A DNA stretch of 64,000 nt, taken from positions 7,492,162 to 7,556,161 of the forward strand of contig CM119271.1 in NCBI GenBank assembly GCA_051294375.1. The letters run 5' to 3'. The notes below the pieces were generated by a model. It had not been told where the DNA came from, ran no database searches, and saw nothing but the letters and a program-made list of their open reading frames with translations. Numbering within the stretch: the first letter of the stretch is position 1; each line of letters begins with the position of its first letter. The stretch comes from Paraspadella gotoi. Its lineage: Eukaryota > Animalia > Chaetognatha. The position numbers and the translations under genes were made by a program. Positions 4,313 through 64,000 of this stretch are shown here, piece by piece.

Positions 4313-4330
4313 TCATTCTTTCTTTCTTTC
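4180..4330. repeat. (TTTC)n microsatellite
   Basis: Seen directly. Confidence 0.9.
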
Positions 4331-9900: not shown

Positions 9901-10040
9901 AAACAAAAACTAAATCAATTTAACGAAAAATCTGGAAACAAAAAAAGTCTTTTCAGTCGATGAAGGAAAAAAAAACGCTTCGCTTGGGAGAAGCGGTTTC
10001 CTCTGAGAAGCGGTTTCGCTGCGGGAATTCCGCTCTTAAT

Positions 10041-23449: not shown

Positions 23450-23526
<77 letters not shown>

Positions 23527-24025: not shown

Positions 24026-24105
<80 letters not shown>

Positions 24106-26425
24106 CTGAACATTGAGAGAGAGTCAAGCGACATCCGTCCACCGGAAGTCGACGAATAAAGGTCTTCTTCTTCTGCGCCGTCGGTTTCGTCAAAACCAGA
24201 CGGTGATCTGTCTCGCCTCCGCGCACCTGATTGGTCGGAAGGGTCAACGAACGGTAAATTTGCTTCCAAAAGTAGATGTAAAGCCAAAGAAAGTCGAAGT
24301 GTTAAGGTTAGATAATTATTAATTAATCTGGTCTAGAGATTGTCATTTACCCTTGGAAAAAAAATGTTTTGAATTTGTTTTTCAGGTACAAAACAAATGC
24401 AAGAGTAGAGACTTGAAAATAAAGATAAAAAACATGATATAGACGCCTTATGAAATTGGTACAACCAATATAAAAATTATCCATTCATTTAATAATTATA
24501 TAAATAATATGTTTCTATAAACTAGTCTGGTGATTGAAAAAAAAAAAAAAAAAAGAAACGGGATTAAGGCGTGATTTGGAAAGAAGAAAGAAGAAAGGCA
24601 GGAAGGCTGCTCGTTCGCCGAAGCGCGAAAAAAGAGTTCGAGGAAAATGGAAGGAGAAAAAAAAAATGGCCGCCTCCATTCCTTTTTTTTTCGCTCTATC
24701 GCGGTAGACTTGATTTTTGTCTTTTTTTCTCTCTCTTTCTCTCTTCCTTTCATCCCCTTTTAATCAAGTCAAATCTTCCCCCTCCGCGTGGATTGCTCCT
24801 TTGTTTCTTTCATTTCGTTACCCTCGTTCCACGCCTCTCCGCCTGCAAGCGCTGGCGTCGCTGTCGTCGTCCAAGCGAGAAAGACGAGGCGGGGGGACGA
24901 GGACGAGAGGGGAGGGAGGACGAGGAAGAGGGCGGAATCGACGGGAGGGACGAGAGTTGAACGCCGAAAGGGGGATCGAGCGGGTGCTTGCGGAGGGGGT
25001 CTGGAGGGGGGTTGGATGAGGGAGGGAGAAAAATAGAACCGTAGTGACACTTTTTGAACAATTAGAATCTTGCGCGACGGTCAGGTGGCGAATCGATTTT
25101 CGGTTTGAACGCTGATCATTGGTTATACATAACAATACTAAATTGCTTAACGACAAAAATAGAAAGAAAAAATGTTGGAAAAAAAAATAAAAAATAGGGC
25201 AAAACATTCTTTCGATTGCGTCATCGGCCAAAGGTCGAAAACGTCACCTTGGCAACGGCGAAGCCGTGTTCCCGCGCCGCCCGACGCAGGCGCCGAATCC
25301 TGGCGATGGCGGCGTCCAAGTCGGTTGAGCCGGGCACGCCGGGTCGACCCGGCACCGCGGGGAGGGCGGTGGACGGGGTCGGGGGTGGACGGGCGGAAGG
25401 TTGAGGGGCTGGAAGAATAAAATGGAAGTGGGGGATGTGTTAAACCGTTAATATGTAATATTGCCGAGTTTAGAAGGTAACTTTTTATTGACCTTTGGGT
25501 TCAGTTTTGTAGACGTTTTTATCACAGTTGTATTCGTTTTCGTTGGCGCTTAGCCAAAACTTTCTGCACGCTACGGGGTAGATAGTTTAGATTGAGAGGA
25601 CGCTTTGGTAACGCATCTGAAAGAAAATAGAATTTTTTGTTAAATAATAACAAACATTTAGCAAGCTATTAAATAATTCTTTCACCTTTTGCCTTGGCAT
25701 CGGGCGATGCCTGTGACGAGGACCCGTCCCGGCGGATCTCGGCAGCGGAGGGCAAAGTTCGCCCGACGATTTTGCGTCCACCGCGCAGCCGCCGATGATG
25801 CCCGTTCGTCGAAGACCCGCATCGGGTTTGGAAACCTCCGTGGCGGTCCCTCCCGATTCGGATCGACGAGCGACTGGAGGCGTCGAGGAGAGTCGACGAC
25901 GACGTCGTCGCGGAGACGGTCGTGGAAGAGATCGATGGCGTCGCGGCGAAGAGGCTCGTCGACGATGAAGAGATCTTGGACGAGGTCGAGGGAAAGGCGG
26001 CAGAATGTTTTGATGAGGTAGTAGAGACGCGAGTGTCGACGGAGGTCGGCGACGATATACTGGAGGCCGAAAGGTTCGTCGTCGTTGTAGTGGGCAATGG
26101 CTCAAAAATTATCAAAGTTCGAACAACAATTGGAGTCCAACGATTCGTGTTGTCGGCGATCAGCGTAGTCGACGTCGGCCAAGGGGTTCGACGAAACCCT
26201 CGCCACCGTCGACGTCCGTACGAGCGACTCGAGCGTCATCGACGAAGATATCGGCGTTGGCGGTCAATGGGATCGTCAAGTTTCCCTCGTGAAAGCTGCT
26301 ACCCATTCCCGAGTCGCGAGGAGGGGGCGGGAGAGGAGGAAGAGGAAGAAGATTGACTCCAGTAGTAGTCGGCGCCGATTCCGACGCCGTCTGCGTCAGG
26401 TAGGCGGCGTTGCTTCGACGCCCAC
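19955..26425 (-). CDS. TRAK: TRAK/Milton 3' exons, copy A (frameshifted as assembled), plus unique exon 19955-20116
   Basis: Same exons as copy B, e.g. 23144-23284 (LPERLEIVKPL) and 20637-20874. Exon 19955-20116 (162 nt, phase 1-1) encodes STPATPPSSPTRPFTPPSSP, resembling the TPPxSP motif of TRAK C-termini. Confidence 0.6.
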
Positions 26426-27560
26426 CTGCAGTAAAGAAGAAGAAAAAAAGGCGTTGGCTTAAGGAAATAAAATATACAGACGATTCGGCGGGAGAACGGA
26501 GAGAGAATGTGGCGGGGATAATGTGGCTGGGAGAGAGAAGAGAAAACCGATTCCACTACCCCTCCCCTTACCCTTCCCCCCACAATCCGACCCCAAAAAA
26601 AGGACGATTCTGGAAACAATTTGAGGCGCAGCGGAGCGGCTGAAGAATTAACCTCGGAAAAGTAATTCCTTCTAATGTTGTCGGGCATTAAAGCTCCATC
26701 GGTTTCAATTAGCGGTCGCCGACGAAATTAATCGTCACCGTTAAAAAAAAAAGTAAACAAACGTTAAAAAAATAAAGCTAAAAAAAAAAAAAAGACGAGG
26801 AGTGGAAAAACAAAATAGTGAAAAGAAAGAGAAACTAAAGAAGAGCGAAAAAACTCTATCCGTCATAACTCTTTTTATTTTTCATTCAATTCATTCTTAG
26901 GTTTTTTTATTTTGTTCATTCACTTTATCTGTTCCTTTTTGTTCTCTCTTTTCTATTTTTTCTCTCGCGTCGCTTCTCTTTTCCCGCCCTCGGGTTTTCT
27001 TCCTTTTTCTTTTGTCCTTGGTCTAAAAAAAATGGAGAATATGTGCTGTCGATGGAAAACGGAGGCTGCGGTATTTGCGGTCGTTGTTGTGTTTGTCACC
27101 AAGTTTTCCGCATTATTCATGAACATTGAACAATTTTTTAATTGCGAGCGGCACTGTTCGATACAGTCGATTGACAGAAGCGAATGATGCTGGCAAGTAC
27201 AAACGTTAGATGGAATAGGGGTATTTAAAAGGGATGAGGGTGAAGGGCGAAAGGGACACAAAGGGGCGTGGAACCGTCGATCCATTTACTCCGTTTTTCT
27301 CTCGCGCCGAGTCGCGTGTCAAAGATTGAAAAGAGATAGGCGCGCAGCCTCATTAGCACAAACCATTTTGAACTTTTAACAAACGCGCGGGACCCTCGCT
27401 CAGGCGGGCGAACGAGCGAACGAACGAGCCAACGAACGACCGAACGACCGAACGCGTTGATGAATTACCGGCTGGCTCGCGTTCCGGAATCCGGGAACGC
27501 GCCGTCTTAACAAGCCGTCTGTCCTCTCTCTCTTCTCTCTCTCATCTCTCTCTCTCTCTC
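20236..27560. repeat. About 7.3-kb near-identical duplication, copy A (copy B about 30049-37630)
   Basis: Colinear identity from AAACGAGAACGAATTTTATA to the (CT)n tract; differences are mostly 1-bp indels. Confidence 0.95.
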
Positions 27561-30048: not shown

Positions 30049-33000
30049 AAACGAGAACGAATTTTATATTTAATAATCGAAATCTTAATTTTTTTTATTA
30101 TTCAAATCATTCTCAACCTAATTTAATCACCTTAATTATTCGCCGACACATTACTACAAATTAGCTTGAAACCCCCCCCCCAAGTGAAAAGGGATAATTT
30201 TGACGAGGGGTCGGGTTGTCGTTCCTGACTTTTCATCATTTTCCAAAGACGCGGAAACTCGGTGGAGAAATGAAAAGAAGTCGGCGATTAACGGGGTCCC
30301 GCATTCATTACCGCTAACGGGATTCATTATCGTTAACAGCATTAAGACGGGCGATTCTGGTCTCTTCTCTCTNNNNNNNNNNNNNNNNNNNNNNNNNNNN
30401 NNNNNNNNNNNNNNNNNNNNNNNNNNNNNNNNNNNNNNNNNNNNNNNNNNNNNNNNNNNNNNNNNNNNNNNNNNNNNNNNNNNNNNNNNNNNNNNNNNNN
30501 NNNNNNNNNNNNNNNNNNNNNNNNNNNNNNNNNNNNNNNNNNNNNNNNNNNNNNNNNNNNNNNNNNNNNCCGGCCCCGCGCTACTGATCCACCGCCGGCG
30601 CCGCTGGTCTCGGTGGCGCGCGCCAATTGCGCCACGTCCTCGTTAAAGCTGTACGTCGCGCAAAGGCCGGCCGGTCGGCGGCCGGCGCTTCGTCCCGCAG
30701 CCGGCGTTGTTGTTGTCGTCGTTGTCGAAACGCTTCCGACTCTGGCGAGGAAGAAACAAACTAATTACGTGCGCCGGTCGGGCGCCGGCGGCGGCCATTT
30801 TGGAGGAGGAAGAGGATGAGGAGGAAGAAGAAGAAAATAAAAAAGAAGGGAAAAATAAAAGACGCGAGGAGGTTGGTAAAATTAAGGGGGGGNNNNNNNN
30901 NNNNNNNNNNNNNNNNNNNNNNNNNNNNNNNNNNNNNNNNNNNNNNNNNNNNNNNNNNNNNNNNNNNNNNNNNNNNNNNNNNNNNNNNNNNNNNNNNNNN
31001 NNNNNNNNNNNNNNNNNNNNNNNNNNNNNNNNNNNNNNNNNNNNNNNNNNNNNNNNNNNNNNNNNNNNNNNNNNNNNNNNNNNNNNNNNNNNNNNNNNNN
31101 NNNNNNNNNNNNNNNNNNNNNNNNNNNNNNNNNNNNNNNNNNNNNNNNNNNNNTTACTATTTTAGGCTCACAGTCACAAAATTTTATAAAGACAAGATGT
31201 CACTTAAAAATGCCGAGAATTCGGTTTTTTAAACATCAATAATTGGAAAAGTATTTTTTGGATTTTTAAAAATAAAGTATGTAAAATGAAGTATTTTTTC
31301 CGCTCTTTAAGTTGACGCAGGTTAAATTTGATTCCGACTGATATATATTCAGATATCTAACATTTTTAAGGAAAAAAAACGTTTTTTTGCAAATTTTGAA
31401 GAGTTGCAAGCACTTATTGATCGATTTTTAAAAAAAACAAAGATGGGAAAAAATTAGTAGCATATAGGGGACTAATTTGTACTATAGTGCTAAATTCTGT
31501 AAAAAAGTTTGAAAAATTTGCTAAGGCCTAATGTGTACTCGATCAAAAACTTTTCCGATAGTGATATTAGAAAGGAAAATGTTAACTTAGAGCTTGTTAT
31601 ATAAATATTAAAGATATTTTTTAAAAAAATCAAATTTTCCACTCGGAAAATGTCACGCCCGATTCTGTTTTCACCTCTGCTGAGATACGGCATCGTTCGC
31701 TTCGACAAAGGACGCCATCTTTCGGTCAAAGTTGTCAGCGCCGCGAAGGTGAGTCACGCGCGAATCCGTCGCCGTCGACGTCATCGCCGATCCCGCCGAG
31801 TTGAGGGAAGCCGAGAATGATTCCTGGAAGCCCAATATCGAGTTGAGGGAAGCCGAGAACGATTCCTGGAAGCCCAATATCGAAGCCGACGAGGACGACG
31901 TGACGGCGACGTTGGAAGAGGTCAATCTGGGGGATTAAAAGAGGTTCAGATTACAAAGATCGACGCAAATGATCCTGGACTAGTCTTTAGGGCATTCGTC
32001 ATCCACTGTCAAAGCTGTTGTAATATTCAGAGATGGTGGAGCTGCAGCCGTTTTATTTTCTGACATTGACAACCGAGGCGCCGTCTAGTGTCTAGTGACC
32101 ACTGCTCATTGACAAGGTTGGCTGGGGCCAGTCAATTGATCCAGCCAAAAATTTGACAGGAACGTCCCTCTCGATCTCGGCGTCACTCACCCGACGAAAA
32201 AGTCGTCTGTCTCGTCGTCGTCTTCCTCGAAATCGGAGAGAGAAAAAAGTCGCGAGGAATCTCCGTTGAAATCGTTCCGCGCGAACTGAGCCAATTCCGG
32301 GTTCAGGATTTGGGCTCTGGAAGGAGGTTGGGGGGAGGAAGAGGAATAATTTGGAGAGGGGGAAGGAAGGAGTTTGGCTTCGGAAAGAAGAAAAAGGATG
32401 AAGCAAAAAGTGGGAAAGGAGGTTGGGGCTTTGGAAAGAAAAGAGCAAAATGAGTTGGGAGAACTAGAACTAGTTGGAAGCGGAAAAATATGTTTAAAAA
32501 AAAATCATATTAGAAAATTAGAAGCTGAAGGGAAAAAAAAAACGAGAGTGAGAATTTTTTTGGGGGTGAAAAAGGAATAAAAGCCAAAATGGTTCGGAGA
32601 AAATGAGGGGAAATAAAGGAAGCGTTTGACTTTGAATAAGAACGAGAAATAAAAAAAAAATGGGGAAAAAAAACTTGAGAAGCGATTCACGAAATCATCT
32701 CATGAATTTAAGGCTCGAAAACAAAAAGAGAGACAAACATTGTCAGACAGAAAGCCTCTCTTCAAACTCGCTAAGGAAAAGGAATTAAGGAAGAGGAGAG
32801 AAAATGGCGAACGACACTTTTTTTTTCTTTTTTTTTTCTGTGCCAAATTTTTTTGTTGACAAAAAAAATGGGGGGGGGCAAAGGAAGTCTTTCCCGAGGA
32901 AAGTACAAAATCATTGAAAGCCGCAAAGCCAAAGGATGTAAGGAAGGAAAAGAAGGGGAGGGAGAAAAAAAACAAGAATTTCTCCAGGGGAAAAGAATAT

Positions 33001-33712
33001 ATAGCGAATATGCAGATCCCGAAAATATGACGAGTCATATGCAAATGAGAAAAGCGGATTAGGAAAAAAAAAAGAAGGGAGGAAAAAAAAATGCGCGGAA
33101 AAAAAAATGCGCGGGAAAAAAAAAAGTTTTTTTAGAAGCCCGGGCGGAGGAGGAAGCGAAAAGGAAAGAAAAAGAAAAGAGAAGAAAAAAGAAGAAAAAG
33201 AGGAGAGAGAAGAAAGGATAAAAAAAGATTAGGAGGAAATAAAGAAAAGTAGGAAAGACGAAAATGAGAAATGGAAGTCGTAAGGAAGAAGAGGCGAGGA
33301 CGTCTCGGCGTCCCTAGGTGAGCCGGTTCGAACAACGGCGGCTGCAGCTGGAGCGGCGGAGACGGAGGCAGCAGCGGCGTGGCGGGGGGGGGAGGCGAAA
33401 AAAAAAACAAACCTGTAACGGACGCCTTTGTATTCCGGCGGACGAGACTGAAGGAGGTCGAAGGAAGGTCGCGCTAATTGACGCCAAGTTTGTAGCGTTA
33501 CCGACCCGCGGAGGGGTTTCACGATCTCGAGCCGTTCCGGCAAGGCTGGCCTGAAAGAACAGAAAGAAAAGTTTTAAAAGGGAAGCTCTCAAAGCTACCA
33601 TGTTCAAACAGAATCACCGAGACTGAGTGATACGGTTGTCGGCCATTGACCTGAGGATCAAATAAATGAAAGAAACTCTTCTTTCCGCCCACGTCTTGTC
33701 TCTCTCTCGCTC

Positions 33713-33789
<77 letters not shown>

Positions 33790-34162
33790 ATTTTACGACT
33801 TCCGGCGCGCCATTCTTTCTCTCTGCCAAAATTATTTTTGTCCTTCTTCATCCCGTTCCCCTACCTGACCCCCTAACACCTGACGCCAAAAATCTGACCC
33901 CTCGCATCTGATCCCGCGCCGCATGATCGCCACCATTTGACCCTTAAACTTGTCGCCAACGCAAAGCCCCACCATCTGCCAACTGAGACACTCAAACTTT
34001 GGCAACTTTGCTTCCCCCCTATTCTTTTTTTTTTTTTGAATCTCTCCGCCCAATCTCATCTCTCATCGCATCGATTTCTATTCAAGCTTCCCCTTTACCT
34101 GACCAGTGACCAATGATCAATGGGAGAGTGGGGAGGGAAAGAAAAAGGNNNNNNNNNNNNNN

Positions 34163-34193
<31 letters not shown>

Positions 34194-37100
34194 CTGAACA
34201 TTGAGAGAGAGTCAAGCGACATCCGTCCACCGGAAGTCGACGAATAAAGGTCTTCTTCTTCTGCGCCGTCGGTTTCGTCAAAACCAGACGGTGATCTGTC
34301 TCGCCTCCGCGGCACCTGATTGGTCGGAAGGGTCAACGAACGGTAAATTTGCTTCCAAAAGTAGATGTAAAGCCAAAAGAAAGTCGAAGTGTTAAGGTTA
34401 GATAATTATTAATTAATCTGGTCTAGAGATTGTCATTTACCCTTGGAAAAAAAATGTTTTGAATTTGTTTTTCAGGTACAAAACAAATGCAAGAGTAGAG
34501 ACTTGAAAATAAAGATAAAAACATGATATAGACCCTTATGAAATTGGTACAACCAATATAAAAATTATCCATTCATTTAATAATTATATAAATAATATGT
34601 TTCTATAAACTAGTCTGGTGATTGAAAAAAAAAAAAAAAAGAAACGGGATTAAGGCGTGATTTGGAAAGAAGAAAGAAAGAAAGGCCAGGAAGGCTGCTC
34701 GTTCGCCGAAGCGCGAAAAAGAGTTCCGAGGAAAATGGAAGGAGAAAAAAAAATGGCCGCCTCCATTCCTTTTTTTTTCGCTCTATCGCGGTAGACTTGA
34801 TTTTTGTCTTTTTTCTCTCTCTTTCTCTCTTCCTTTTCATCCCCTTTTAATCAAGTCAAATCTTCCCCCTCCGCGTGGATTGCTCCTTTGTTTCTTTCAT
34901 TTCGTTACCTCGTTCCACGCCTCTCCGCCTGCAGCGCTGGCGTCGCTGTCGTCGTCCAAGCGAGAAGACGAGGCGGGGGGACGAGGACGAGAGGGGAGGG
35001 AGGACGAGGAAGAGGCGGATCGACGGGAGGGACGAGAGTGAACGCCGAAAGGGGGATCGAGCGGGTGCTTGGCGGAGGGGGTCTGGAGGGGGGTTGGATG
35101 AGGGAGGGAGAAAAAATAGAACCGTAGTGACACTTTTTGAACAATTAGAATCTTGCGCGACGTCAGGTGGCGAATCGATTTTCGGTTTGAACTCTGAACA
35201 TTGGTTATACATAACAATACTAAATTGCTTAACGACAAAAATAGAAGAAAAAAATGTTGGAAAAAAAAATAAAAATAGGCAAAACAATTCTTCGATTGCG
35301 TCATCGGCCAAAGGTCGAAACGTCACCTTGGCAACGGCGAAGCCGTGTTCCCGCGCCGCCCGACGCAGGCGCCGAATCCTGGCGATGGCGGCGTCCAAGT
35401 CGGTTGAGCCGGGCACGCCGGGTCGACCCGGCACCGCGGGGAGGGCGGTGGACGGGGTCGGGGGTGGACGGGCGGAAGGTTGAGGGGCTGGAAGAATAAA
35501 ATGGAAGTGGGGGATGTGTTAAACCGTTAATATGTAATATTGCCGAGTTTAGAAGGTAAACTTTTTATTGACCTTTGGGTTCAGTTTTGTAGACGTTTTT
35601 ATCACAGTTGTATTCGTTTCGTTGGCGCTTAGCCAAAACTTTCTGCACGCTACGGGGTAGATAATTTAGATTGAGAGGACGCTTTGGTATCGCATCTGAA
35701 AGAAAATAGAATTTTTTGTTAAATAATAACAAACATTTAGCAAGCTATTAAATAATTCTTTCACCTTTTGCCTTGGCATCGGGCGATGCCTGTGACGAGG
35801 ACCCGTCCCCGGCGGATCTCGGCAGCGGAGGGCAAAGTTCGCCCGACGATTTTGCGTCCACCGCGCAGCCGCCGATGATGCCCGTTTCGTCGAAGACCGC
35901 ATCGGGTTTGGAAACCTCCGTGGCGTCCCTCCCGATTCGGATCGACGAGCGACTGGAGGCGTCGAGGAGAGTCGACGACGACGTCGTCGCGGAGACGGTC
36001 GTGGAAGAGATCGATGGCGTCGCGGCGAAGAGGCTCGTCGACGATGAAGAGATCTTGGACGAGGTCGAGGGAAAGGCGGCAGAATGTTTTGATGAGGTAG
36101 TAGAGACGCGAGTGTCGACGGAGGTCGGCGACGATATACTGGAGGCCGAAAGGTTCGTCGTCGTTGTAGTGGGCAATGGCTCAAAATTATCAAAGTTCGA
36201 ACAACAATTGGAGTCCAACGATTCGTGTTGTCGGCGATCAGCGTAGTCGACGTCGGCCAAGGGGGTTCGACGAAAACCCTCGCCACCGTCGACGTCCGTA
36301 CGAGCGACTCGAGCGTCATCGACGAAGATATCGGCGTTGGCGGTCAATGGGATCGTCAAGTTTCCCTCGTGAAAGCTGCTACCCATTCCCGAGTCGCGAG
36401 GAGGGGGCGGGAGAGGAGGAAGAGGAAGAAGATTGACTCCAGTAGTAGTCGGCGCCGATTCCGACGCCGTCTGCGTCAGGTAGGCGGCGTTGCTTCGACG
36501 CCCACCTGCAGTAAAGAAGAGAAAAAAAGGCGTTGGCTTAAGGAAATAAAATATACAGACGATTCGGCGGGAGAACGGAGAGAGAATGTGGCGGGGATAA
36601 TGTGGCTGGGAGAGAGAAGAGAAAACCGATTCCACTACCCCTCCCCTTACCCTTCCCCCCACAATCCGACCCCAAAAAAAAAGGACGATTCTGGAAACAA
36701 TTTGAGGCGCAGCGGAGCGGCTGAAGGATTAACCTCGGAAAAGTAATTCCTTCTAATGTTGTCGGGCATAAAGCTCCATCGGTTTCAATTAGCGGTCGCC
36801 GACGAAATTAATCGTCACCGTTAAAAAAAAAAGTAAACAAACGTTAAAAAAATAAAGCTAAAAAAAAAAAAAAGACGAGGAGTGGAAAAACAAAATAGTG
36901 AAAAGAAAGAGAAACTAAAAGAAAGAGCGAAAAAACTCTATCCGTCATAGACTCTTTTTATTTTTCATTCAATTCATTCTTAGGTTTTTTTATTTTTGTT
37001 CATTCACTTTATCTGTTCCTTTTTGTTCTCTCTTTTCTATTTTTTTCTCTCGCGTCGCTTCTCTTTTCCCGCCCTCGGGTTTTCTTCCTTTTTCTTTTGT

Positions 37101-37612
37101 CCTTGGTCTAAAAAAAATGGAGAATATGTGCTGTCGATGGAAAACGGAGGCTGCGGTATTTGCGGTCGTTGTTGTGTTTGTCACCAAGTTTTCCGCATTA
37201 TTCATGAACATTGAACAATTTTTAATTGCGAGCGGCACTGTTCGATACAGTCGATTGACAGAAGCGAATGATGCTGGCAAGTACAACGTTAGATGGAATA
37301 GGGGTATTTAAAAGGGATTGAGGGTGAAGGGCGAAAGGGACACAAAGGGGCGTGGAACCGTCGATCCATTTACTCCGTTTTTCTCTCGCGCCGAGTCGCG
37401 TGTCAAAGATTGAAAAGAGATAGGCGCGCAGCCTCATTAGCACAAACCATTTTGAACTTTTTAACAAACGCGCGGGACCCTCGCTCAGGCGGGCGAACGA
37501 GCGAACGAACGAGCCAACGAACGACCGAACGACCGAACGCGTTGATGAATTACCGGGCTGGCTCGCGTTCCGGAATCCGGGAACGCGCCGTCTTACAAGC
37601 CGTCTGTTCTCT

Positions 37613-41800: not shown

Positions 41801-42956
41801 TAATAAAAAAGAGAGAACTGAAGAGACAGTAATAATTGTTATGTGTTAGTGACAGAACCGTCCAATATAAGCAGTCCCTGAGCTTCGGATCAGGCGAAGT
41901 GAATGACTTGCCTCCGGCACGGTTGGTGGAATTTAGTCCACCATAGAACCTTATAACGGGTTCAAAGGCCGGTTTAAAATAAAAATTGTCAACGGAGTCC
42001 AAGCAGTCGTAGTGTGGGTCACCTCAAAAGAAAGAAGCCGAGTGTCGCCTCGATCTGCTCCTCGGAAAGATCGAGTCGTCTGCCGATCTCCTCCGTCGAC
42101 AGAACCGGGAATTCCAAGGTGCCCGTCGGATCATCGAAATCTGACGCAGAGGGTGGTGGTGGTGGTGGTGGTGGTGGTGGTGAAGGGATTGAGAAGGGAT
42201 AAGGACAAAAAATGGATGAACGGTTAACCAAGTCGAAATTCTAATTCGAGGATCATTTCGACAACACGGTTTCAGTTAATGTCACGCTTTCGATGCACTT
42301 TTAGTTCATATATTTGTATATTAATATAGTGGACGACAAGTAGTATGCAAAGTTATTCGAGAGTCGACACATTTCATTTCCGAATAAACTATAAAGATAT
42401 AATGAGTTTTTGTTTTCCAGTGAAACGAAATTACATGATTGCGTGAGTCGGATTTTTAGTTGGTGGGAACTCACCGGGATTTATTTTTTTTCTAAATCAT
42501 GAGATTTGAGATATTTCTGTTATAAAAATTATTGATTTAATGAGAGATTGATGGCGATTAAGATTCTCCTTTAACTCACCTCTAAGTTTGTACAAAACCG
42601 GCGAACACTGTTCCTCCACTTCAGTGCGGTTTGGAGTATCTCGGAGTTCCCTCGATAAACCTGCAATCCAGAAATTATTTAGGCTTTTCGATTTTATCAT
42701 CGACGTAATAGACTATAATTTGATAATTGAGTCCAAGATTAACGTATAACACAAACACACACACTCTCTCATCTTTAATATTAATTACCTTAATGGATAA
42801 TTTTTGTTTTGGTTTACTAATTAAACCCATTATAATTTATATCAAATGCTTTACTTTTTCATTGTCTTTTCTCTTCTTCTCACCTCCGGAACAAGTTAAA
42901 TAATTCAGAAGATCATTGCTACAGAATCCTTTTTCGTCCACCAGTTCCAGAGGATT
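30570..42956 (-). CDS. TRAK: Trafficking kinesin-binding protein (TRAK/Milton; HAP1_N plus Milton motifs), multi-exon; start exon not found
   Basis: GT-AG exons: 42884-42956, 42580-42660 (LYKLR), 42023-42140 (LSEEQIEATLGFF), 41103-41289 (MTKTYSD..LLREKEADLELAARIGQSLL), 40854-40989 (VSQLRHE), 40667-40746, 40372-40584, 40056-40259, 39416-39655 (SLAMELE..RVFETVK), 38517-38748, 35765-36505, 35327-35487 (PGVPGSTDLDAAIARI), 34909-35082, 34194-34315, 33413-33550 (LPERLEIVKPLRGSVTLQTWRQLARP), 32191-32316, 31675-31926, then 30741 into the gap. Phases are consistent down to 33550; below that, indel errors and one unresolved junction remain. Confidence 0.92.
39854..39982. mobile_element. About 130-bp hairpin/MITE-like inverted repeat in a TRAK intron
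   Basis: TTTCAACGTATTTTAATAAATTATTAATA pairs with TATTAATAATTTATTAAAATACGTTGAAA; the inner arm CCTTTATATTAC pairs with GTAATATAAAGG. Confidence 0.75.
41819..41945 (-). mobile_element. Solo LTR (internally deleted) of the TRIM family at 54306-54888
   Basis: Same termini (TATGGTGGACTAA...CTGTCTCTTCA on -), flanked by a 4-bp TSD (GAAC on +, 41815-41818 and 41946-41949). Confidence 0.85.
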
Positions 42957-44752: not shown

Positions 44753-46141
44753 ATGAAGAAATTCGCAATTTTGATCGGCGTCCTTGGGATTTTCTTGACT
44801 GGTAAGTAACAACGAACCTGTTTTTTATTTCTTTTCTTCACGTTCTAAACTAAAGTTAATTATAGTTTGTATAATTTATTTAAATACTTGAGATAGCTGT
44901 TGTCCAAGTTGACCTTTTTAAACATTTCTAGGCGAATTGACATGGGCGCTATCTTCAAACGGTACTGAGGTTTCTACCCAAGCCCCTACACAACCGCCAA
45001 CGCAAGCGCCTACACAAGCACCAACACAAGCACCCTCGACCGGGACGGCAGCGCCAGTCACGCCTACAACGGCCCCGGCGCCAACGACGGCCCCGCTCCC
45101 TCCCGCAAAGAAGAGAACGTTTGAATTGAAGACGGAAGGAGGAAAGCTCTGTGCCAAACTTGAATTGGCTGGCAGAATCAAAGATCTGAAGGTACAACTC
45201 ATTCTGTTCGTATGGTGAATGGGGGTTCCTCAAACATTAAGTTAAAACTTGATGTTTCGTAAAACTAAACATTGATATAATATGAGTTTAACTATTCAAA
45301 AATTATGATTATTTGAAAATATTATATATTTAAAGTTTAGTCTTTCTCGATTTTTCTTTCCAGCTTTCGGTCGACATTCCCCAGGATGCTAACTACACTG
45401 GCAATTGTAGCAATACATTCACTTTGACTTTCGGCAAAACCGAGATTTCGTTCGATTTCTCCTCGGTATAATCTGTTTGTTTTTTTTTAGATTCGTGCAA
45501 GCAATTCGATCAATCTTTGTTTACTTGTTATTTTACTTAGGACACCCAAGAATGGGAAATTAACGCGATCGACGTGAAGTTCGACGGTAAGATGATCAAA
45601 GTTTAATTTTTACTTTTAACAAAATCAACATCGTCCACGTTTCTCTGACAGGAAAACAATTGGAGTTCCTTTACAACGACACCAAATCGCGCTTGGGAAA
45701 CTGCTACTGGTAATGAATTGCATGCTGATTTTTGGTCAGTTTTTTTACTTTGAAATTTTTGAAAATGTAATGTTTTCTCCGACAGGTGCAACGCCGTCAA
45801 CAAGCTGGAATCGAATGGAGTTGACTTTGAAATTAGTCACTTCAAGTTCCAACCTTTTATGGATCAGTCTAAAGATTCTGATTTTGGACGAGGTGATTTT
45901 AAGAAAGATTAATACTAGATAACTTACATTCCATGGTTTTCATCATGTAGACAGTTTTGTTAATTTTCTTTTACATGATACTTTCCGTTTCCTTTCAGCA
46001 AACCGATGCCGCAAAGACAAGGAGGTGAACAACGTGGTTCCCATCGCCGTTGGCGCGGCTTTGGCGGCGCTTGTTGTAATCGTTCTTATTCTCTACCTGA
46101 TCGGCCGACGAAAGCATCAGAAGGGCTACCAGACCGTCTGA
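44753..46141 (+). CDS. LAMP: Lysosome-associated membrane glycoprotein (single LAMP domain, mucin-like stalk)
   Basis: Seven GT-AG exons: 44753-44801 (signal peptide MKKFAILIGVLGIFLT), 44932-45191 (TQAP repeats), 45364-45465, 45541-45586, 45652-45709, 45786-45892 (FQPF), 45999-46141 (VPIAVGAALAALVVIVLILYLIGRRKHQKGYQTV*, with the GYxxphi lysosomal signal). Confidence 0.95.
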
Positions 46142-53180: not shown

Positions 53181-56100
53181 TCCCCCATACCCAAAAACAA
53201 TCACTGGGTTGGTGACTCAGGGCGTAGTTTCTATCGAGTTTCGCGATTCCTTCGTCGACGTCGTTTGTCCGTAACCATGGAGACGTGATGTGGTAATTTG
53301 ACCAGAAACGAGAGTCCCTTTCGTTGAGGCTGGCGTGGTAAATAAGAACGACCTGGAGATTTTTAAAAATAGTGAACACTAGAAAGGCCTAGAAAAAAAA
53401 AAGCTGATTGTGTTTCTCTTTTCATTTATATTTAATAAATAACGCTCAGAAAATGAGGCTCGCCTGCTTTTCTTCTTTCCATAAATTCGCCAAGGTCAGT
53501 TGATCGTAGGAGCGGACAGACGCGAGCTTCGATCCGAGAATTTCGGTGATAAGCCTTTATGCAATATTGATTCGTAGTTTATAAAATAGAAGTATTTGAG
53601 AGATGTGATTAAATGGGGGAAAAAAATTATAAAAAAAAAGGAATTAACTTTGTTGAATCCTGAACTTTTGAGAAACAAAATTCTACAAAAATTCAAAATA
53701 AAACTGGGATAAAAAATTGAAAAAAATTTCTAAAAAAATTTGGTAAAAAACACTTAATAAAGTAAACTGCTCTTAATAAAAAAAATTGTGAGAAAGCTGG
53801 GTAAGGCGAATATAATTTGTGTAACTTGCCTGGCGAAATTTCTATGGTCCGTCGACGACATTCCGTAAAAATGATTAATATCAATAATTACGACCTCCTT
53901 TGGGTGATTCGACAGGAATTTGTTTACTGCCATCAAGCCTTCTTTCGCAGACTGTGAAAGAGTTACGGATAATGAAATTGTTCATAGTGATATAATCTTA
54001 ATGAACTACAAGGTAGAAATCCAAAGAGGAAAACAAAAATTAGAAAATTATCTTTTGACAATTAATTAATTGTCAGGTTACACATAAGTTACCGTTCGTG
54101 AAAAATAGACGGGTTTATTTTATTTAATACCTGCGCGTATAAAGAGTGGAGAAGATAGATGTCCCCATTCTTCGATTCCCGAGATGCGACTCTAAAATCC
54201 AGATACCGAATTCCAGCTTCGAGTTGTTGTTCCAAAGTTAGCGCTTGCGTCACTCCCCAGTTATATATTATTTTTTTCGCGGCTTTTCCGAAAAAATTAA
54301 TAACCTGAAGAGACAGTAATAATTGTTATGTGTTAGTGACAGAACCGTTCAATATAAGCAGTCCTTGAGCTTCGAATAAGGCTGTAATACCATGTTACTT
54401 GCGGGTTAAGCTAGGCGACCACCGGGCTAGAACCCCGGATCTTTGGGTTGGGAGGTGAATGACTTTCCTCCGGCACCAATGGCCGCTGATGAACGGTTGG
54501 TGGATTTTAGTCCACCATATATCCCCCCCTCCCGTAGGGATAAGTCTGTTGCGTCTCTTCAGTTAATTTTTGTTGTTGTTGTTGGAAAGTTCATCACCAA
54601 GTTGAGGTATGTCACCTGATGTGTTGTTGCTGTTGTGTTCGGAAGTCGGGCTCACCAATGAAGAGACAGTAATAATTGTTATGTGTTAGTGACAGAACCG
54701 TTCAATATAAGCAGTCCCTGAGCTTCGGATCAGGCTGTAACACCATGTTACAGGCGGGTTAAGCGCCCCGTCCCTCTTAACTGCTAGGCGACCACCGGGC
54801 TAGAACTCCGGACCTTTGGCTTGGGAGGCGAATGACTTGCCTCCGGCACCAATGGCCGCTGATGAACGGTGGATATTAGTCCACCATAAACCTGAAAATT
54901 GGCGAGAGATAATGTGCTTCATTTTTTTAAAGAATTTCTATAAACAGTGTTTATTAAACACAATGTTTATTAAACACAGTGTTTATTAAACACGGTACCT
55001 TGATAAGCGTTTCAGACAAATCAGGAGATGGACCTAGTTCCGCTTTGTAATCCAGCAAAGCTGTGAAAGAGTCGTGTGATCCGGGAATCGCTATTCCTGA
55101 AAACATAAATAAACTAATTATTAAAATACTAATGTAATAATTTACATCGAAAATGAAAAGTCTTTAAGTCTTTATGTTTAATCTGTGACAGAAAGTCTGT
55201 TCAAATAAAGTTTTAACTAAGGATTCAACAAAGTTAAAAACAAAAACAACTGCAGCGATGGCGATAAAAAAAAACTTAATCCTTTCCGATTATTTCAACT
55301 TTGTCAAGTTAGATAAAAAAGCCAGACTCAAAGACGTCGTAGAGATTTTCTGAAGAAAAAATCCAAGATGGCGGCTGAACCCATGAATTCCAAAGACGAA
55401 GATACAGACGACGATGACGACGAGTCTCAGTTGACGAACGATCGGGAAAATGTTGTCACATTTAAAGTAACCGGTTAGTTCATTCGTGGCGGGAAGAAGG
55501 CCGGTCGGAGATTTACGCCTTTTCGACCCGAGGTTTTTTTTTTTTTTTTTTTTTTGTTCCTCAGTGGGGTTTTGCTTCCCATCTTTGCCCAAGGCCGATG
55601 AGAGCCAACAACAACAACAGCAACAACAACAACAGCAGCAGCCGCAACCACCGAAGCCGCCGGCTGCTGTAAAGTTTTTTCACTGTTCGTTTTTCATGTT
55701 TCCCGAGGATGTGAAGCCGGTAGAAGCCGACGTTGTGATATTTCATCAAGGTAGACGTTTTCGGTCTGAAAAAAATCTTTCAATCACTAATAGCTATAAT
55801 AGTAAGGAGCTATCTTTGACGATTGAAACGACAGAACCCATGGGCTACATCGCCAAAATCTACACCGAGGACAACGAGCCTCAAGTGACTGGAGTTTGGG
55901 TGAACAAATCGTCGTCGTGGATCGCGTGGGAGCATCGATTGAGAATCAACGCCACCGCGAAATGGATCCCCAATCTCGTCGACCACGCCGTCGACGTCCG
56001 CCTCTGGGACACCCCGGACAAGGTGTCGCCGAAAGCGAAAAACGACAAACCGAAAATGTTCAAAATGTTGGAGGGCACGAACCTGCAACTGCGCGACAAC

Positions 56101-57975
56101 GTGAAGAATCTGGTCATGAACATGTCGCAACATTTCCCCGTCTGCGGTCGAGAGCTGCAATTGAGGGGATGCGACGAGCGCAAGCTTCCCCACGTAATCG
56201 AGGCGGAACCGGAGCCGGAGCCGGAGCCAAAACCGGAACCGGTCGTGCCCGAAGTACCCGCGGAACCTCCGAAGACTCCGGGAAAAAAAGGCAAGGGTGG
56301 CAAGTCCGGAAAGAGCAGCCCCAAGAGTAAATCGGGAAAGAGCACGCCCAAGAGTAAATCGGGAAAGAGCACCCCAAAAGGAAAACAGGAGAAGGTGAAA
56401 ATATCCCCCGAGGAAGTGGCGCGAAGGCTCAAAGAGCAAGAGGAGGAGGCCAGACGGAAGAAGAACGGGATCGTTGGCGTGGCCCTCGATATGAACCCTT
56501 TTTTCTCTGCCAACCGTGTCGAATGGACCAACCGGTTGGACGTTCCTTATAACGAAGTCCAGGATATGTTCGTTAAGGTGAATTCTAGAGAACAAAACGC
56601 TTTCACATCGTATGTCATTCTGAACGCTCTGTTTCTCTTCCAGATTTCTTTGGACGAACCTCTCCTGTCTCCAGAAATTCAGCAGGAACTAAACCCATTT
56701 ATTATCGACGTTTCCTGCGTCCGCGATCTTCCGCCACCGATGAATCCTCAACCCGTTCCTGACTACATGAGCTACCAATTCCCGACTCAGCCTCACCGCG
56801 TCCGCCAAGGAGTCCGACGAGGACGCGAGGTGTTCTGGGACGATCTGCACGTCATTCTAGTCGGTCTCTTACCGGAATCTCGGCTCCGGGAGATCTTTCT
56901 CGATCCGCCGATGACCATCGAAATTCACGATCGAGACAGGAAAGACGTTCCGGTTCCGGCGAATCGCTTCGAAGATCGTTATGTGGATTGCGGCAACCCG
57001 AATTGCCCGCACACGCCGAACGAGCCATGCTATCGTCCGCGAAGATGGGAAGAATACGGGATAGCGCGCTTAGATCTCTCGCCGCTTATCTTGGGACAGA
57101 GGGGTTTTCACGCAACGATCCCTATCGTGCCGGCTCAACCGCCGGACCCGCTGGCTCGTAATCCAAGAGTAGATCTCAAGCGGTTACGACGCGACATCAA
57201 GCGGGGAGAGAAGACGGAATGGAACGAATGGCCGGTTGAAAAACTGGTGCCGCCGCTGGTGGCGCCAAAGGCGCCTTATTTGGAGGAGGAGTCGTCTCTG
57301 GAGGTTCGCGTGGAACTCGCTGTCAAACTGAAGCCGCTTCAGGCCGTGACTAAAGCGGGACGGCCGAAGATCGTGGACGAGGCGATCGCCGGTGGAGAGG
57401 GTCGAGAAGGCGGCGAGGGTTCGAAGAAGGAAGAGGGGTTGGAACCGGAAGTCGTCGTCGAAGCGGGATCCGAGGAAGGGGAGGAGTTCGATGGAGAAGA
57501 CGGCGCCAAAGAATCCATCAAACCGGAGAAAATCGAAAACGCTTTCGGAAGAATCGTCTTGAAATTCTCCGGCGACAATCGACGACTCATGCTGAGCATT
57601 TATCAAATGGTCGCCAACATCAACGTCGAGGCGTTGGGATTTCAAGAGATTCCCGAACACACGACCAGCTTCGCCATGGCGGCGAGGAGGCTCGCTCCCG
57701 AAGAGCGGGAGTCGATCGAGTTGAACGTCATTTCTGGTTTTCACTTCATGGATCCCGTCATTCAAATCATGGTGCTGGAGGGCGTGGCGGAGAAAGGGAT
57801 TCTCAATCTTTGGGAGGATTTTTCGAAGATGCTGACAGACGATCCCTATTTTACGATCTTTTACAATTCCTGCATCAGCTTTGAGGAGGTGAATCGCTAG
57901 TTTGACGTTTCGAATAAACGCTTGAAAACTAAGTCGCGGCGTTCGTTTGTTCTTTCTTTGTTCTTTCCTTTTTTT

Positions 57976-58651: not shown

Positions 58652-59487
58652 TCGAACTCGATTTTCACTACTGCTAGCAATTTTCGTAGTATCGGCTTCC
58701 ACAAATCACAATACTAAGTATTTTCGTTTCACGCTTCTCAGTGATGTTAGACTCGCTGCAGAAAGAATTCGGGATCCCGCTTGAGCAAAGATTCTTCGAC
58801 GGGTTTCAAACCATCATCCCAAGAACCAAAATTATTCCGGAAGTTCATGAGTCCTTCCAGGAGGAGAGTCCCGAGCCGCCCGAGTTCACCAGCGCCGAAA
58901 GATTGGCCATCAGGAATCAGTGGCAAGAGAACGCGCCCAAAAAAGCAGAGAAAAAAATTTCGGAATGCGCGGCGTCTCGAAATTCGTTCATCGCTTGCGA
59001 AGTCCGTAGTTTGGAATTACTCAGACAGATTTGCGATTTGACGTGAACATTTAAAATTTCTCAATGGAAGAGAGTAAAATATAATATTCAATACCTTTTT
59101 AATTGCTTTTCATATCCGATTTATTTCCAAAATACTATACGGAAATAGGAAAGAGTGCAACAAGGGTTTTAATTTTAGTTATACCTACACTGTAGGTCCT
59201 ACAGTCTTTCTGTAATGAAAATATCGAAATTTCGACGAATATCTTACCAGTTTTTTTTCGTGTATTTTAGACAGATTACCTGAAAGTGGCATATTTTGTA
59301 TTTTTGTCGGAACCGTACTCATCCAATCGGAATTTGAATTGCTGAAAGATGTCTTCAAGAAGTTAAAAACTTCAACGTTTTCAGCCATTTTTTGGAGGAA
59401 CAACTTCTGGACCCCATACGGCGTCGGCTTGGTAGAAAATACATTTTGTACTGAAAACAAAAAGACGAAAATCGCTAACGGCGTCAT
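52896..59487 (-). CDS. PLCXD: PI-PLC X domain-containing protein
   Basis: Seven exons: 59280-59487 (..DWMSTVP..MPLS), 54999-55096 (GIAIPGSHDSF), 54131-54304 (WGVTQ..QLEAGIRYLDFRVA..YLLHSLY), 53830-53951 (FLSNHPKEVVIIDINHFY), 53464-53554, 53191-53352 and 52896-53108 (VTQGVLTP..VNVVVVDFV..VINLN). All phases are consistent. Confidence 0.93.
54306..54888 (-). mobile_element. Non-autonomous LTR retrotransposon (TRIM), 583 bp
   Basis: 5' LTR 54659-54888 and 3' LTR 54306-54519 (TATGG...TTCA on -). PBS TGGTGAGCCCGAC follows the 5' LTR; PPT GGGAGGGGGGA precedes the 3' LTR; TSD GGTT at 54889-54892 and 54302-54305; 139-bp non-coding interior. Confidence 0.9.
54787..54859 (-). other. 73-nt tRNA-Gly(CCC)-like module inside the 5' LTR (second copy 54414-54486); not a functional tRNA call
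   Basis: 7-bp acceptor stem GCGGCCA/TGGTCGC, anticodon loop CTCCCAA, T-arm CCGG(A/G)-GTTCTAG-CCCGG and A-box-like TGGTGCCGGAGG; D and anticodon stems are imperfect. Confidence 0.6.
55368..59046 (+). CDS. CFAP92: CFAP92/KIAA1257 (DUF4550)-like cilia/flagella-associated protein, nested antisense in PLCXD intron 1
   Basis: Exons 55368-55473, 55565-55750, 55835-56577, 56644-57888, 58198-58396 and 58742-59046 (3' end tentative). Motifs include WIAWEH..VRLWDTPDKVSPKAK, ELNPFII, IEIHDRDRK, YGIARLDLSPLILGQ, FGRIV, VISGFH..IMVLEG, RLY and EFGIP. Confidence 0.8.
57981..58066. repeat. (CTTT)n microsatellite in an intron shared by both strands
   Basis: Seen directly. Confidence 0.9.
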
Positions 59488-60328: not shown

Positions 60329-61430
60329 TCTTTCTTACGTATTGATGTTGTTGTTGTTGTTGTTAGAAAAGGAGGAAATATCACGAAAAAGAAACTTTCG
60401 CTACAATATCAAGTTTGTTGTTGTTGTTGTTGTTGTTTCTAGAAAGCCCTTAGAAGTAAAAGAGATCGTTCAAAGAGAACGACTGAAGTTGTTGCTGTTG
60501 TTGTTGTTATCGTCATGAAGACAACGTCGTCGTCGTCGTCGACAGCGTCGAAGTTCTTACAGAGTAAAGATCGTTCGAGGAGAAGAAAGAAGATGGCAGA
60601 TCTCGTTTTATGTTTGTTTACATCTTTTTCTCATTTTTGATCGATTAAAACTTTAATTTAAAAATTTCACTTCACTCTTTCCCGCCATTGGTTAAAGTTA
60701 AAAAAAGTTTTCTGAGTGCGCACATGACAACAAATAATGAAAAAGACTTATCATTATTTATAAATTATTTATACCTGTGATATTTTAGAATTGTCGAATT
60801 CTGTGAAGCAATGACTGAGCTTACAATTCAGTTACAATATTCCTTGCACTCTCCTCTGTACATTTATGGTACCATTTGTTTTTTGATCCAGTTACTCTAT
60901 TCGCGCAAGCGCCATTAGAGTTCACAAACTCGACCAAGATTCTCATTGTATTGGTCAGACCTCATGGTAGCGAAAAGAATAAAACCCAATATTTTTCTCG
61001 CTTCGTGTCATTTCCTTCTTCTCCTGGTTTAAATTTCGGTCCCATTCAACCGTTTTCATCATTCAGGAGGATAAAAATGGGCGGAAAATTAGTTTACTTG
61101 TACAAAACACAATGACTGTGCAACGAAAAAGTTGTTGTTGTGGCATTTTCTTTTCAAAATTTCTTTTTCCTTCCCGCAAGTAAATTTTCTTGTATTGCAG
61201 ATGGAGGTCGAAGGAAAGGTTTCGCCCGCTGGATCGTGGACGGACGACCGATGTTGGAAACGACTCTCAAGGCTTGACCCTCTCGTCGAGGCGCTAACGG
61301 ATCGTCAGTCCGGCTTGACTTAAAAAATTTACCAGTGCCTCCCCATTCGGTTCGTCTCTCACTCTCTCTCTCACTCCCTCTTTCTCGTTGAAGTTCTAAT
61401 ACATAAACACAATGGTTGAACGTAACCCTT

Positions 61431-64000
61431 ATGGCTGGTCGTAAAAAAATCAAAGGCCGCGCGTTGACATTGGCCGTCGTCCTCGTGGCTTGCGTCGGAT
61501 TCCGCGTCTCGCATCAGCTCCACCTTCGTTTCGAATCGCTTCCCGAGGATTCCACAGTGTCGCCCAACGGCACGGTGACTTTGCATTGCGACGCGGAACG
61601 GGTCTTCGGCGAGGAAGAAGCCAAAGCCCCCGTCGAGATCGAATGGAGAAAAGACGGGGAAAAATTGAATCTACTCTCGAACGACTCGTCGGCGAGAATT
61701 TATCAGCTCTCCAATGGATCTCTCGTTGTGCAAAGATTCGAGTCGCGTTCGGATCGCGACGATGGAAATGAAAATACCGACGAAGGTCGATACCGCTGCG
61801 TGGCCACCGGTCCGGAAGGAGTTCTTCTTTCCAAGTCCGCGACAGTGAAAGCGGCCGCGACCCCATTTTTTCCCGACGATGGTCATCCTCAATCTACCTC
61901 TGTTCACCGCGGCGGCGCGGCCAGGTTCCGTTGCTCCGTCGGCGATGGGACCGAACCGCCCGTCGAATACTCATGGAAGTTTAATCAGGGAAATCTACCT
62001 CAAAACTCACGATTTACCGTCATACCTGGAGGCGCTTTGCAAATCGCAGACGCGCGTTTTTCTGATTCAGGTTTCTACCAGTGTATTGCATCCAATATTG
62101 CAGGCGTCGCATTAAGCAACAAAGCTTTTTTAAATGTTTTACTTGGCCAAGATGATTCAACTACCTCAAAAAATATTGAAACCAAGCCTTTAGTTATGAG
62201 AGCCAGACCCTCGAATGTTTCCGCTCTTATTGGCACTGATGTAGTTTTGGAATGTTTGCCCGATGGATATCCATATCCTGAAGTGAGTTGGTTTTTTTCG
62301 ACTGGACACCCGATAGACACAACAAATAACTCCCATTACACGATTTTTGGTCGGGGTAATCTCATGATTATTGGCGCAACCGAACAGGACAGGGGCTTAT
62401 ATGTTTGTAAATCAACGATTCCAGGCTCACTATCTTCTATATTAACATCTGCGTTTGTTGAAATGCTAATTCCACCTAAGTTAATCGAAACACCCAAGAG
62501 CTTTTCCTTACCAATTGCTCAAACTGCGAGATTTACTTGCCTCTCTGATTCTTCTACTTACCCAACTCCGATCACAAATTGGTATAGAAATGGAATGGCC
62601 GTGAATTTCATTGGAAGAATAAAGAAAATGGATGGTGGAAAAACTTTATTAATATCCCAGCTTACCACTTCGGATGATGGAATATATCAGTGCATAATAG
62701 AAAATAAAGTAGGGTCAGTTACAGCCGCCGCAAAGCTGACGGTAAATATATCAGGTAACGAGCCTGCATCTCCGACAAACCTCAAAGCACTTAGTCTGAA
62801 AACCACTTCTGTAACACTTGAATGGGAAGCAGTTTTGACATCTATTTCTCGTCCTATTGTTGCCTATTCTGTTCATTACTTCCAAACCAAAGGAGGTCTC
62901 GAGTTTCAAAAAATTGAAATGGAAAACAGGGCTTATATCACAGAGTTAAAACCATTCACCAACTATACATTTTATGTTGTCGCTTATAACAAAGAATCTG
63001 CATCGGAACACTCCAATTATTTAACACTTACCACAAAAACCTCTTTGCCATTAGCAGTGCCAGATTTTGTCGTAACTCCAACCTCTTCAACGAGCCTCAG
63101 GCTCGATTGGAATGAACTCCCAATCGAAAAAACAAGAGGTATAATTACTTCTTATAAGATTTTGTTGAGGTCAAAAGTTGATCCCGAAATTACCGTTCGA
63201 GAAATTGATGGAAAAGAACGGCGATTCACATTAACTGGACTAAAGCCTGGAACTTCATATGACGTGTAAGTTTCCCAATAAAAAAAAGTAAATATTCTGA
63301 AATAATTTTAAACAAAAATTCTTTATCCTAATTTTCTTTCAGACTATTGCTTGCTGGAACGACTGTCGGTTATCCTGTTTACAATGAAGAAATGTGGAAA
63401 ACTGTGTCAATGCCTGCTCAAAATTTAATTAACATATTGAAATCTCCGTCAATGAACGTTAATATCTTAAACGCAACCGCAGTCCTCATAAACTGGAACT
63501 CAAATGCCAAAAACGTCATGGGATACAAACTATTTTACAATAAAGAAACTGAGTCAGTGTACGGACCTATTATTCATATTAAAGATGTTACGTCGCATTT
63601 ATTATCCGATCTACAGCCAGGATCTGTTTACATTTTTAAGTTGGTTGCCTTTAATATAAATGGTGAGAGTGGCCCGGTTACACAATCTGTACATTTACCA
63701 TCGAAGTTCCAAACTACTACTGTTGACCTGGGAGATCAGCCAAAAATGATTGAAAACACAGAGAATAATACTAGAAGTTCTTATTTGCCACCTCCTCCAC
63801 ATAACATTCGAATTGCTGTAAGGTCACCAGATTCAGTCAGTATTTCTTGGCAGCCCCCTTTCCAGCATAAACATTCTTATAATACTGAAGTTGTCAGATA
63901 TACGATTAAATATAAACCCTTTATTACAAATCGCCCATCAGATCCTAACATTTCTTTGTACAAGTACAAACAAAGTGCAAGAACAAAGATTTTAGTGACG
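61431..64000 (+). CDS. PRTG: Protogenin-like / DCC-neogenin family receptor (signal peptide, 4 Ig, FN3 repeats), 3'-partial
   Basis: Exon 61431-63265 holds four Ig domains (DEGRYRC, DSGFYQC, DRGLYVC, DDGIYQC) and most of two FN3 domains (LKPFTNYTFYVVAY, LTGLKPGTSYDV). Intron 63266-63342 (GTAAGT..TTTCAG). The next exon runs from 63343 to the window end (LLAGTTVGYP.., LQPGSVYIFKLVAFN). Confidence 0.85.

Follow-up and report, generated by a model that had tools for sequence, protein, structure and literature searches.

What becomes of an intron when a retroelement inserts exactly on its acceptor? The question is raised by an LTR retroelement of 583 bp (54888-54306, minus strand) in the window, the whole stretch of 64,000 nucleotides of Paraspadella gotoi DNA that was analyzed here, where it occupies the 3' end of intron 2 of a PLCXD gene (Table 1). 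The element has no protein-coding sequence and can be described as a Helenus-like TRIM. Its insertion is most likely a tolerated accident.

The host gene was modeled with seven exons and the new, element-derived acceptor of intron 2, which gives a protein of 355 amino acids with no internal stop; the closest two of its 10 homologues share 61-62% identity with it. These 10 homologues were found for exon 3 among 33 candidates; the name PI-PLC X domain-containing applies to four of them, and PF00388 is found in two others (six out of 10 in total). Pfam searches of the single exon frames gave no match to a PLC family, and the name PLCXD rests on the homologues. The joint between exons 2 and 3, TLIK|VINFF, aligns without a gap to TLVK|VINFF of homologue P0001. 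This gapless joint implies that exon 3 opens with an ancestral GTT, and that the duplicated target consists of the old acceptor G and those three bases. Apart from intron 2, four of the five introns of the gene measure 82-275 nt, and intron 1 is 4,183 nt long. The donors of the gene include weak ones (GTACCG, GTATTA, and two GC donors). The two GC donors, CAG|GCAAGT at 53829 and CAG|GCGAGC at 53463 (minus strand), belong to two of the six introns; both introns match skips in the RNA contig described below, and the one that starts at 53829 ends in an AAG acceptor. The same RNA contig reaches 55102, since the last six bases of exon 1 are common to the end of intron 1. Three tandem self-complementary units of ~16 nt lie directly 3' of the intron-2 donor (54947-54993, minus strand), and the original intron 2 may once have been shorter than 107 nt.

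The two LTRs of the element are identical at 198 out of 210 aligned columns and differ by gaps of 4 and 20 nt. They enclose an internal part of 139 nt that carries a primer-binding site, with a donor-like TTG|GTGAGC inside it at 54655, and a polypurine tract. The element is flanked by the target-site duplication GGTT (54892-54889 and 54305-54302). The boundaries of the element are fixed, and are no chance coincidence, since a solo LTR of the same family, found elsewhere in the window, shares these ends but is flanked by GTTC instead. An alternative boundary with TG...CA termini and a longer duplication was ruled out, because the solo LTR shows the same TA start next to a different duplication. 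With regard to the TRIM criteria in the part of PMC4717578 that was covered, the element is 583 bp long and has terminal direct repeats (the size limit is <1,500 bp, or <1,000 in other definitions), occurs as a complete copy and a solo LTR with different duplications, and, as judged by frame length, encodes no retrotransposon proteins, the only stop-to-stop frames of at least 50 aa within it being of 55 and 62 aa. The primer-binding site, polypurine tract and 4-bp duplication agree with those of Helenus (TRIMp3).

Table 1. Positions, within the window, of the PLCXD gene features, the element and its parts, and the splice-related sites
Feature	Position	Strand	Description
PLCXD coding exon 1	59280..59487	-	ATG to intron-1 donor; open 355-aa model
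PLCXD exon 2	54999..55096	-	ends in AAG; donor GTACCG at 54998; homologue tblastn and RNA contig piece 54997-55102
Original intron 2	54892..54998	-	107 nt; old acceptor AG at 54893-54892
PLCXD exon 3	54131..54304	-	174 nt; begins at the ancestral residue; homologues and RNA contig
Left target-site duplication GGTT	54889..54892	-	old acceptor G and first three bases of exon 3
5' LTR	54659..54888	-	230 nt; TA...CA termini
tRNA-like head in 5' LTR	54788..54859	-	7-bp closing stem; box A/B-like words
Twister-like fold (candidate)	54710..54785	-	type-P5 order; in 5' LTR, sense to the pre-mRNA; predicted cut 54761/54760
Primer-binding site	54641..54657	-	begins with TGG one base past the 5' LTR; 3' limit approximate
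Polypurine tract	54522..54533	-	precedes the 3' LTR
3' LTR	54306..54519	-	214 nt; TA start, CA end
Branch-point-like CACTAAC	54332..54338	-	LTR-borne; branch A (54333) 28 nt before the new acceptor
New acceptor	54302..54306	-	A of the LTR end (54306) and G of the right GGTT (54305-54302); spliced joint, skip of 694, CT..AC ends
Possible 51-nt cassette exon	54841..54891	-	in frame; old acceptor to GC donor GAG|GCAAGT at 54840; from sequence only
First stop (TAG) that would be met in frame upon exonisation of the whole element from the old acceptor	54784..54786	-	35 codons past the joint; 137 of 355 aa
Solo LTR of the same family	41819..41945	-	internally deleted; own 4-bp duplication GTTC

Each LTR has a tRNA-like head, the closing stem and T-arm-like stem of which fold well, while box A is partial. 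The fold reaches z = -3.0 in the 5' LTR (0 out of 200 shuffles as good) and z = -2.4 in the 3' LTR (5 out of 200). The 3' LTR carries the box-B word GGTTC, which is altered in the 5' LTR, where position 54807 departs from the family majority. Neither ARAGORN nor Rfam called a tRNA over the head, Rfam showed no meaningful match anywhere over the element, and a pattern made from the LTR start had no match in metagenome contigs. The family is present at very high copy: in three DNA runs the summed depth of LTR contigs is thousands of times that of unique flanks, a quantity that is not equal to copy number. It is abundant in an RNA-like run as well. Some DNA contigs carry LTR-to-LTR joints that skip the internal part, which suggests tandem or deleted forms.

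The geometry of the site is exact to the base. The old acceptor has its AG at 54893-54892 in the context AATTTTCAG|GTT, and the LTR terminus CTGTCTCTTCA, followed by the duplicated G at 54305, creates an AG at 54306-54305. The terminal CA of the LTR and the duplicated G thus re-form CAG|GTT at the same point of exon 3, at a distance of 587 nt from the old acceptor, and intron 2 is lengthened from 107 to 694 nt. Duplications beginning further upstream would have retained the entire AG. The observed register is the last one that still yields an AG, because its A is supplied by the LTR end; one base further on, the acceptor would have been lost in frame. An internal control is provided by the 5' LTR, the final 55 nt of which are identical to those of the 3' LTR but are followed by a T after the CA, so that no AG, and no acceptor, arises there. 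From the duplication and the homologue alignment, we infer an original empty site. A re-check of the sequence bore out the coordinates that an earlier, sequence-only reading had given for both acceptors, the GGTT and the LTR end. That reading had also placed the donor at 54999, which is correct as the position of the joint, but on the minus strand 54999 is the last exon base and the GT of the intron lies at 54998-54997. Its proposal that the regenerated acceptor is in frame with exon 3 agrees with the open 355-aa model and the gapless homologue joint.

Use of the new acceptor was seen in X9, a single RNA-like data set assembled as contigs, the RNA nature of which is a guess. A contig of 1576 nt (record 25) joins 54999 to 54304, with 694 nt removed (intron 54998-54305). 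The same contig skips 179, 275, and 111 nt, each matching an intron of the model with GT/GC-AG ends, and none of these splice joints is present in the three DNA runs compared. The exact skipping of other predicted introns and the absence of the joints from the DNA runs imply that the contig represents a spliced transcript. Among the X9 joints listed, the predicted 54999-54304 junction was thus found and none led to 54891, the first base past the old acceptor; contigs drop minor forms. The X9 depth in the exon-2 bin is 110.5, which is that of the single spliced contig; it is 17.4 in a bin where this contig spans 12 out of 76 bases, and 4.77 at 54875, where reads may stem from this locus or from another copy of the family.

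The filled site was recovered from DNA. The 5' junction of the element is bridged by contigs of X1 (record 8), possibly the source of the assembly, and of X5 (record 15), from another study. The 3' junction is entered by unique contigs of X1, X2, X5, and X6, which extend 19-29 bases into the LTR with no mismatch, overlaps that fall below the bar of 31 bases used for bridging. The search for an empty-site allele, which had been proposed as a check, yielded neither a joint nor a loose end of that kind among those listed for three DNA samples of two studies. No X9 contig places the element in the RNA sample. At 54194 the RNA haplotype of X9 has a synonymous change, which none of the three filled samples shows; X7 has this change, but its contig ends at 54272, short of the junction. 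Between the RNA sample and the window there is a difference at one out of 174 intron-1 bases and at one synonymous exon base, and the single intronic difference has a Poisson P of 0.045 under an assumed divergence of 2.8%, or 0.0005 under 5.7%. The element copy itself differs from 85-100% of the family depth in X1 at seven positions. The excess of these private changes over the differences between haplotypes suggests that the insertion is likely older than the sampled haplotypes.

The end of the LTR appears to bring more than the AG. Its CACTAAC matches the branch-point consensus at six out of seven positions, the best score among the seven acceptors compared, and the best match of the old acceptor reaches 3/7. 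The last 38 nt before the new acceptor contain no other AG, and pyrimidines make up 12 of its last 17 nt, compared with 13 for the old one. With a branch point close to the consensus and a pyrimidine-rich stretch free of AG, the new acceptor would likely be the stronger of the two, and the LTR-borne branch point, presumably in use, is likely the reason why it wins. Three other used acceptors of the gene score just 3-4/7, one of them 3/7, which shows that a weak branch match does not disable a site. Moreover, with four of the five other introns only 82-275 nt long, the nearer and equally pyrimidine-rich old acceptor should compete. Two acceptors followed by the same first exon bases and separated by 587 nt make the locus a natural test of branch-point competition.

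The 5' LTR additionally contains a candidate for a twister-like ribozyme, predicted from a fold model. From the predicted cut it is 131 nt back to the old acceptor and 456 nt on to the new one. A descriptor of the motif, built from twister residues once the site had been seen, gave one match in the window, compared with 0.01 per simulated window (100 simulations). The descriptor, which takes in stem P4, the U-A cut site, the conserved loop L4, and the pseudoknots T1 and T2 of type-P5 twisters, fits the 5' LTR only, and the predicted fold forms P3, P4, and P5. In both LTRs the 5' strand of stem P2, a stem of four Watson-Crick pairs in the type, is three bases long. The Rfam twister models gave no match at E values up to 1, nor up to 10. 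In the 3' LTR, 20 nt of the fold are missing and six further positions in it differ, and the solo LTR has lost most of it. Compared with the twister described in the covered part of PMC5408937, the fold resembles type P5 in stem order, U-A cut site, both pseudoknots, and L4 loop, and a minimal P1 is tolerated in that type; it differs in the P2 that is one base short, in an extra G after P4, and in the missing Rfam match.

Since empty and filled alleles would yield identical mRNA, the spliced contig could derive from an empty allele, with the filled one damaged or mis-spliced. The haplotype difference at 54194 fits this possibility. With this proviso, the spliced joint (54999-54304) and the gapless alignment support the removal of the insertion, proposed by the sequence-only reading, with the coding sequence left unchanged. 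We consider an empty-allele origin improbable, given that filled junctions occur in three DNA samples of two studies where no empty one was listed, and that the private change of the copy exceeds haplotype divergence. Less improbable, though still unlikely, is that the old acceptor is often used and that its products are destroyed, either because the stop at 54786 triggers nonsense-mediated decay or because the twister-like RNA cuts them; the allele would then be a hypomorph or carry a filtered splice choice rather than being neutral. The old acceptor is intact and near the donor, and the 5' LTR fold retains its cut site, both pseudoknot pairings, and conserved loop. Family variants at frequencies of at least 3% (depth-weighted, from contigs at least 90% alike) are rarer in the fold core, with 3 out of 75 (two of them in a loop) compared with 15 out of 96 in flanking positions (P 0.02), and all six LTR-LTR substitutions within the fold depart in the 3' LTR from a family-like 5' LTR (P 0.03, post hoc). 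Destruction is opposed by the absence of any old-acceptor product among the X9 contig joints listed, by the failure of Rfam to match a twister, by the descriptor having been composed after the site was seen, and by the three-base strand of P2, in view of the statement in the covered part of a review that P2 has four pairs and that a change there may disrupt the active site (PMC5408937). The kinetics of cleavage bear on both sides: introns cut by a slow ribozyme can reportedly still be spliced, but a fast intronic one is reported to abort splicing (PMC2995048, partly covered and cited second-hand). If the fold cuts, old-acceptor products would be missing from poly(A) RNA irrespective of the decay pathway, so that poly(A) RNA-seq could not by itself show the old site to be unused; the locus would also test the splicing of an endogenous intron across self-cleavage. 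An extended form of this idea, in which the element not only rebuilds the acceptor but polices its choice, with RNA spliced at the old site cut by the 5' LTR twister and discarded and the 3' LTR, its twister wrecked, providing branch point and AG, is doubtful; a literature search for twister, intron, and splicing listed nothing on such a splice filter.

A minor cassette of 51 nt, reaching from the old acceptor to the GC donor at 54840 and adding 17 residues in a loop of PLCXD, is in frame and free of stops (372 aa), and the intron part of its donor is the same as that of the used intron-4 donor of the gene. Its frame depends on the 4-nt gap, which is rare in the family (low depth at 54875), and additional residues occur in the homologues P0006 and P0009 a few positions past the joint. 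The cassette is absent from the contigs, one in three lengths is in frame by chance, and the gap resembles slippage in a short repeat; its use is quite improbable. Even less probable is a two-step ratchet, in which a donor, AAG|GTTTAT, arises anew once exon 2 has been joined to the old acceptor, and element and duplication (587 nt, GT...AG) are then removed from it as a second intron. Its geometry is exact, the final mRNA would be identical, and the gene uses weak donors; moreover, the 51-nt cryptic exon with its downstream donor recalls the cryptic exons of roughly 50 nt at Drosophila ratchet points (PMC8605326, in the part covered). CAG|GT is present at the old acceptor, but the re-formed donor has a T at +3, a position occupied by A or G in each of the six real donors of the gene, and the X9 joints listed include no intermediate. 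According to the same source, a weakened ratchet donor in flies results in inclusion of the exon, and most ratchet points occur within long introns. The least credible reading is that the family targets AG|GT splice-site-like sequence, which would make the rebuilding of acceptors a strategy of the element. In the window, the duplications of both copies start with G (GGTT and GTTC), and the LTR end forms a ready acceptor cassette. The preference for AG|GT-like targets suggested by the sequence-only reading did not emerge from the family at large. We counted contigs with a match ending at the LTR end or one base beyond it, leaving out rows for truncated ends at 54307-54308 (24 in X2 and 7 in X8). 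Among the contigs listed, a G followed the LTR end in 38 out of 170 (X2), 20 out of 87 (X7), and 9 out of 47 (X8, which shares contigs with X9 and was not counted as an independent sample), or about one-fifth, near the background share of G in the window (0.21). These counts give P values of 0.25-0.62 at an assumed share of 0.20 and 0.02-0.33 at 0.16. Duplications starting with GG made up 2 out of 47 in X8, and in most of the rows listed the majority letters beside both LTR ends are ATAT or GTAT.

A chance insertion that rebuilt the acceptor, with the element removed together with the intron and tolerated, is the probable explanation. The small non-coding element would have inserted, likely by chance, with a duplication starting on the acceptor G of intron 2; its terminal CA and the duplicated G would have restored CAG|GTT ahead of the unchanged exon 3; and the element would probably be spliced out inside the lengthened intron. 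The old acceptor would be left upstream, where products most likely meet the stop after 35 codons and are lost. The spliced RNA presumably derives from the filled allele, and the survival of the insertion presumably reflects selection. With an assumed genome size and acceptor number, 0.8-4 exact acceptor landings are expected per 2,000-10,000 insertions. This rough estimate, together with family flanks that show no AG|GT preference, explains the site by chance and survival. About one-fifth of family copies end in a full CAG acceptor, which makes the family a likely genome-wide source of cryptic acceptors.

Retroelements on acceptors and splice sites derived from duplications are already known, and the literature search did not find the replacement of an acceptor split between CA and G. 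The search covered titles, abstract openings, and few subscription papers, and within that scope no case was found in which the terminal CA of an LTR and a duplicated G form an AG that replaces an existing acceptor. The following comparisons concern the parts of the cited papers that were covered. In canine merle, a SINEC_Cf at PMEL intron 10/exon 11 (PMC7349775), a retroelement likewise sits on an existing acceptor, the duplication involves that acceptor, the element provides the pyrimidine tract, and competition between normal and exonising splice products is possible. However, the SINE of merle lies antisense, has a poly(T) tract, and is flanked by a 15-bp duplication, whereas a sense LTR element is found here with a 4-bp duplication in which just the acceptor G is copied, and hence with an AG split between element and host and a branch point that likely comes from the LTR. 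Introners and AGGT-based intron gain (PMC9860276, PMC12130899, PMC3443670) share with this copy splice sites derived wholly or partly from the target-site duplication and an element that reads GT...AG together with its duplication, and LTR and solo-LTR introners have been reported. Introners insert into exons and create new introns in many genes; by contrast, the PLCXD copy replaces the end of an existing intron. The animal Helenus TRIMs (TRIMp3; PMC10886601) are likewise smaller than 1 kb, with two LTRs, primer site, polypurine tract, and 4-bp duplication; their LTR has a tRNA-derived sequence with boxes A and B, to which the tRNA-like head with its box A/B-like words may correspond, and a Gypsy helper has been inferred for them; TA...CA termini and a twister-like fold, present in our element, are not noted in the parts covered, and the likeness is by description only. 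Drosophila elements of the Gypsy group (412 and Idefix clades; PMC3276498) make 4-bp duplications with an ATAT core that resembles the flanks of this family, compared with which the GGTT at PLCXD is an off-consensus target. The PLCXD copy represents a clean, base-exact replacement of a 3' splice site by an LTR element: the LTR contributes the A and likely the branch point, and the duplication contributes the G. As any LTR ending in CA rebuilds an acceptor when its duplication starts on the acceptor G, exon edges are less fatal targets than assumed.

Several further features were observed in the window. The solo LTR at 41819-41945 (minus strand) is sense to the exons of a gene with a HAP1_N domain (41372-40029) and ~450 nt upstream of them; it keeps the CACTAAC and makes a CAG with its G-first duplication, forming a possible cryptic acceptor. 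A stop-free frame of 809 codons with a DUF4550 domain (E 2.5e-20) lies as a nested gene on the opposite strand in intron 1 of PLCXD (55471-57900, plus strand). Two copies of a repeated block (21640-27138 and 31915-37223), ~10.1-10.3 kb apart, are 98-100% identical in most of the pieces listed and have assembly gaps between them, and they represent either a tandem duplication or two haplotypes. A segment at 45923-46141 (plus strand) encodes a LAMP-type transmembrane segment (Lamp2_2nd, E 4.8e-15), and a frame of 620 codons at 61407-63269 (plus strand) contains four Ig and fibronectin-III domains and is presumably DCC/neogenin/protogenin-like.
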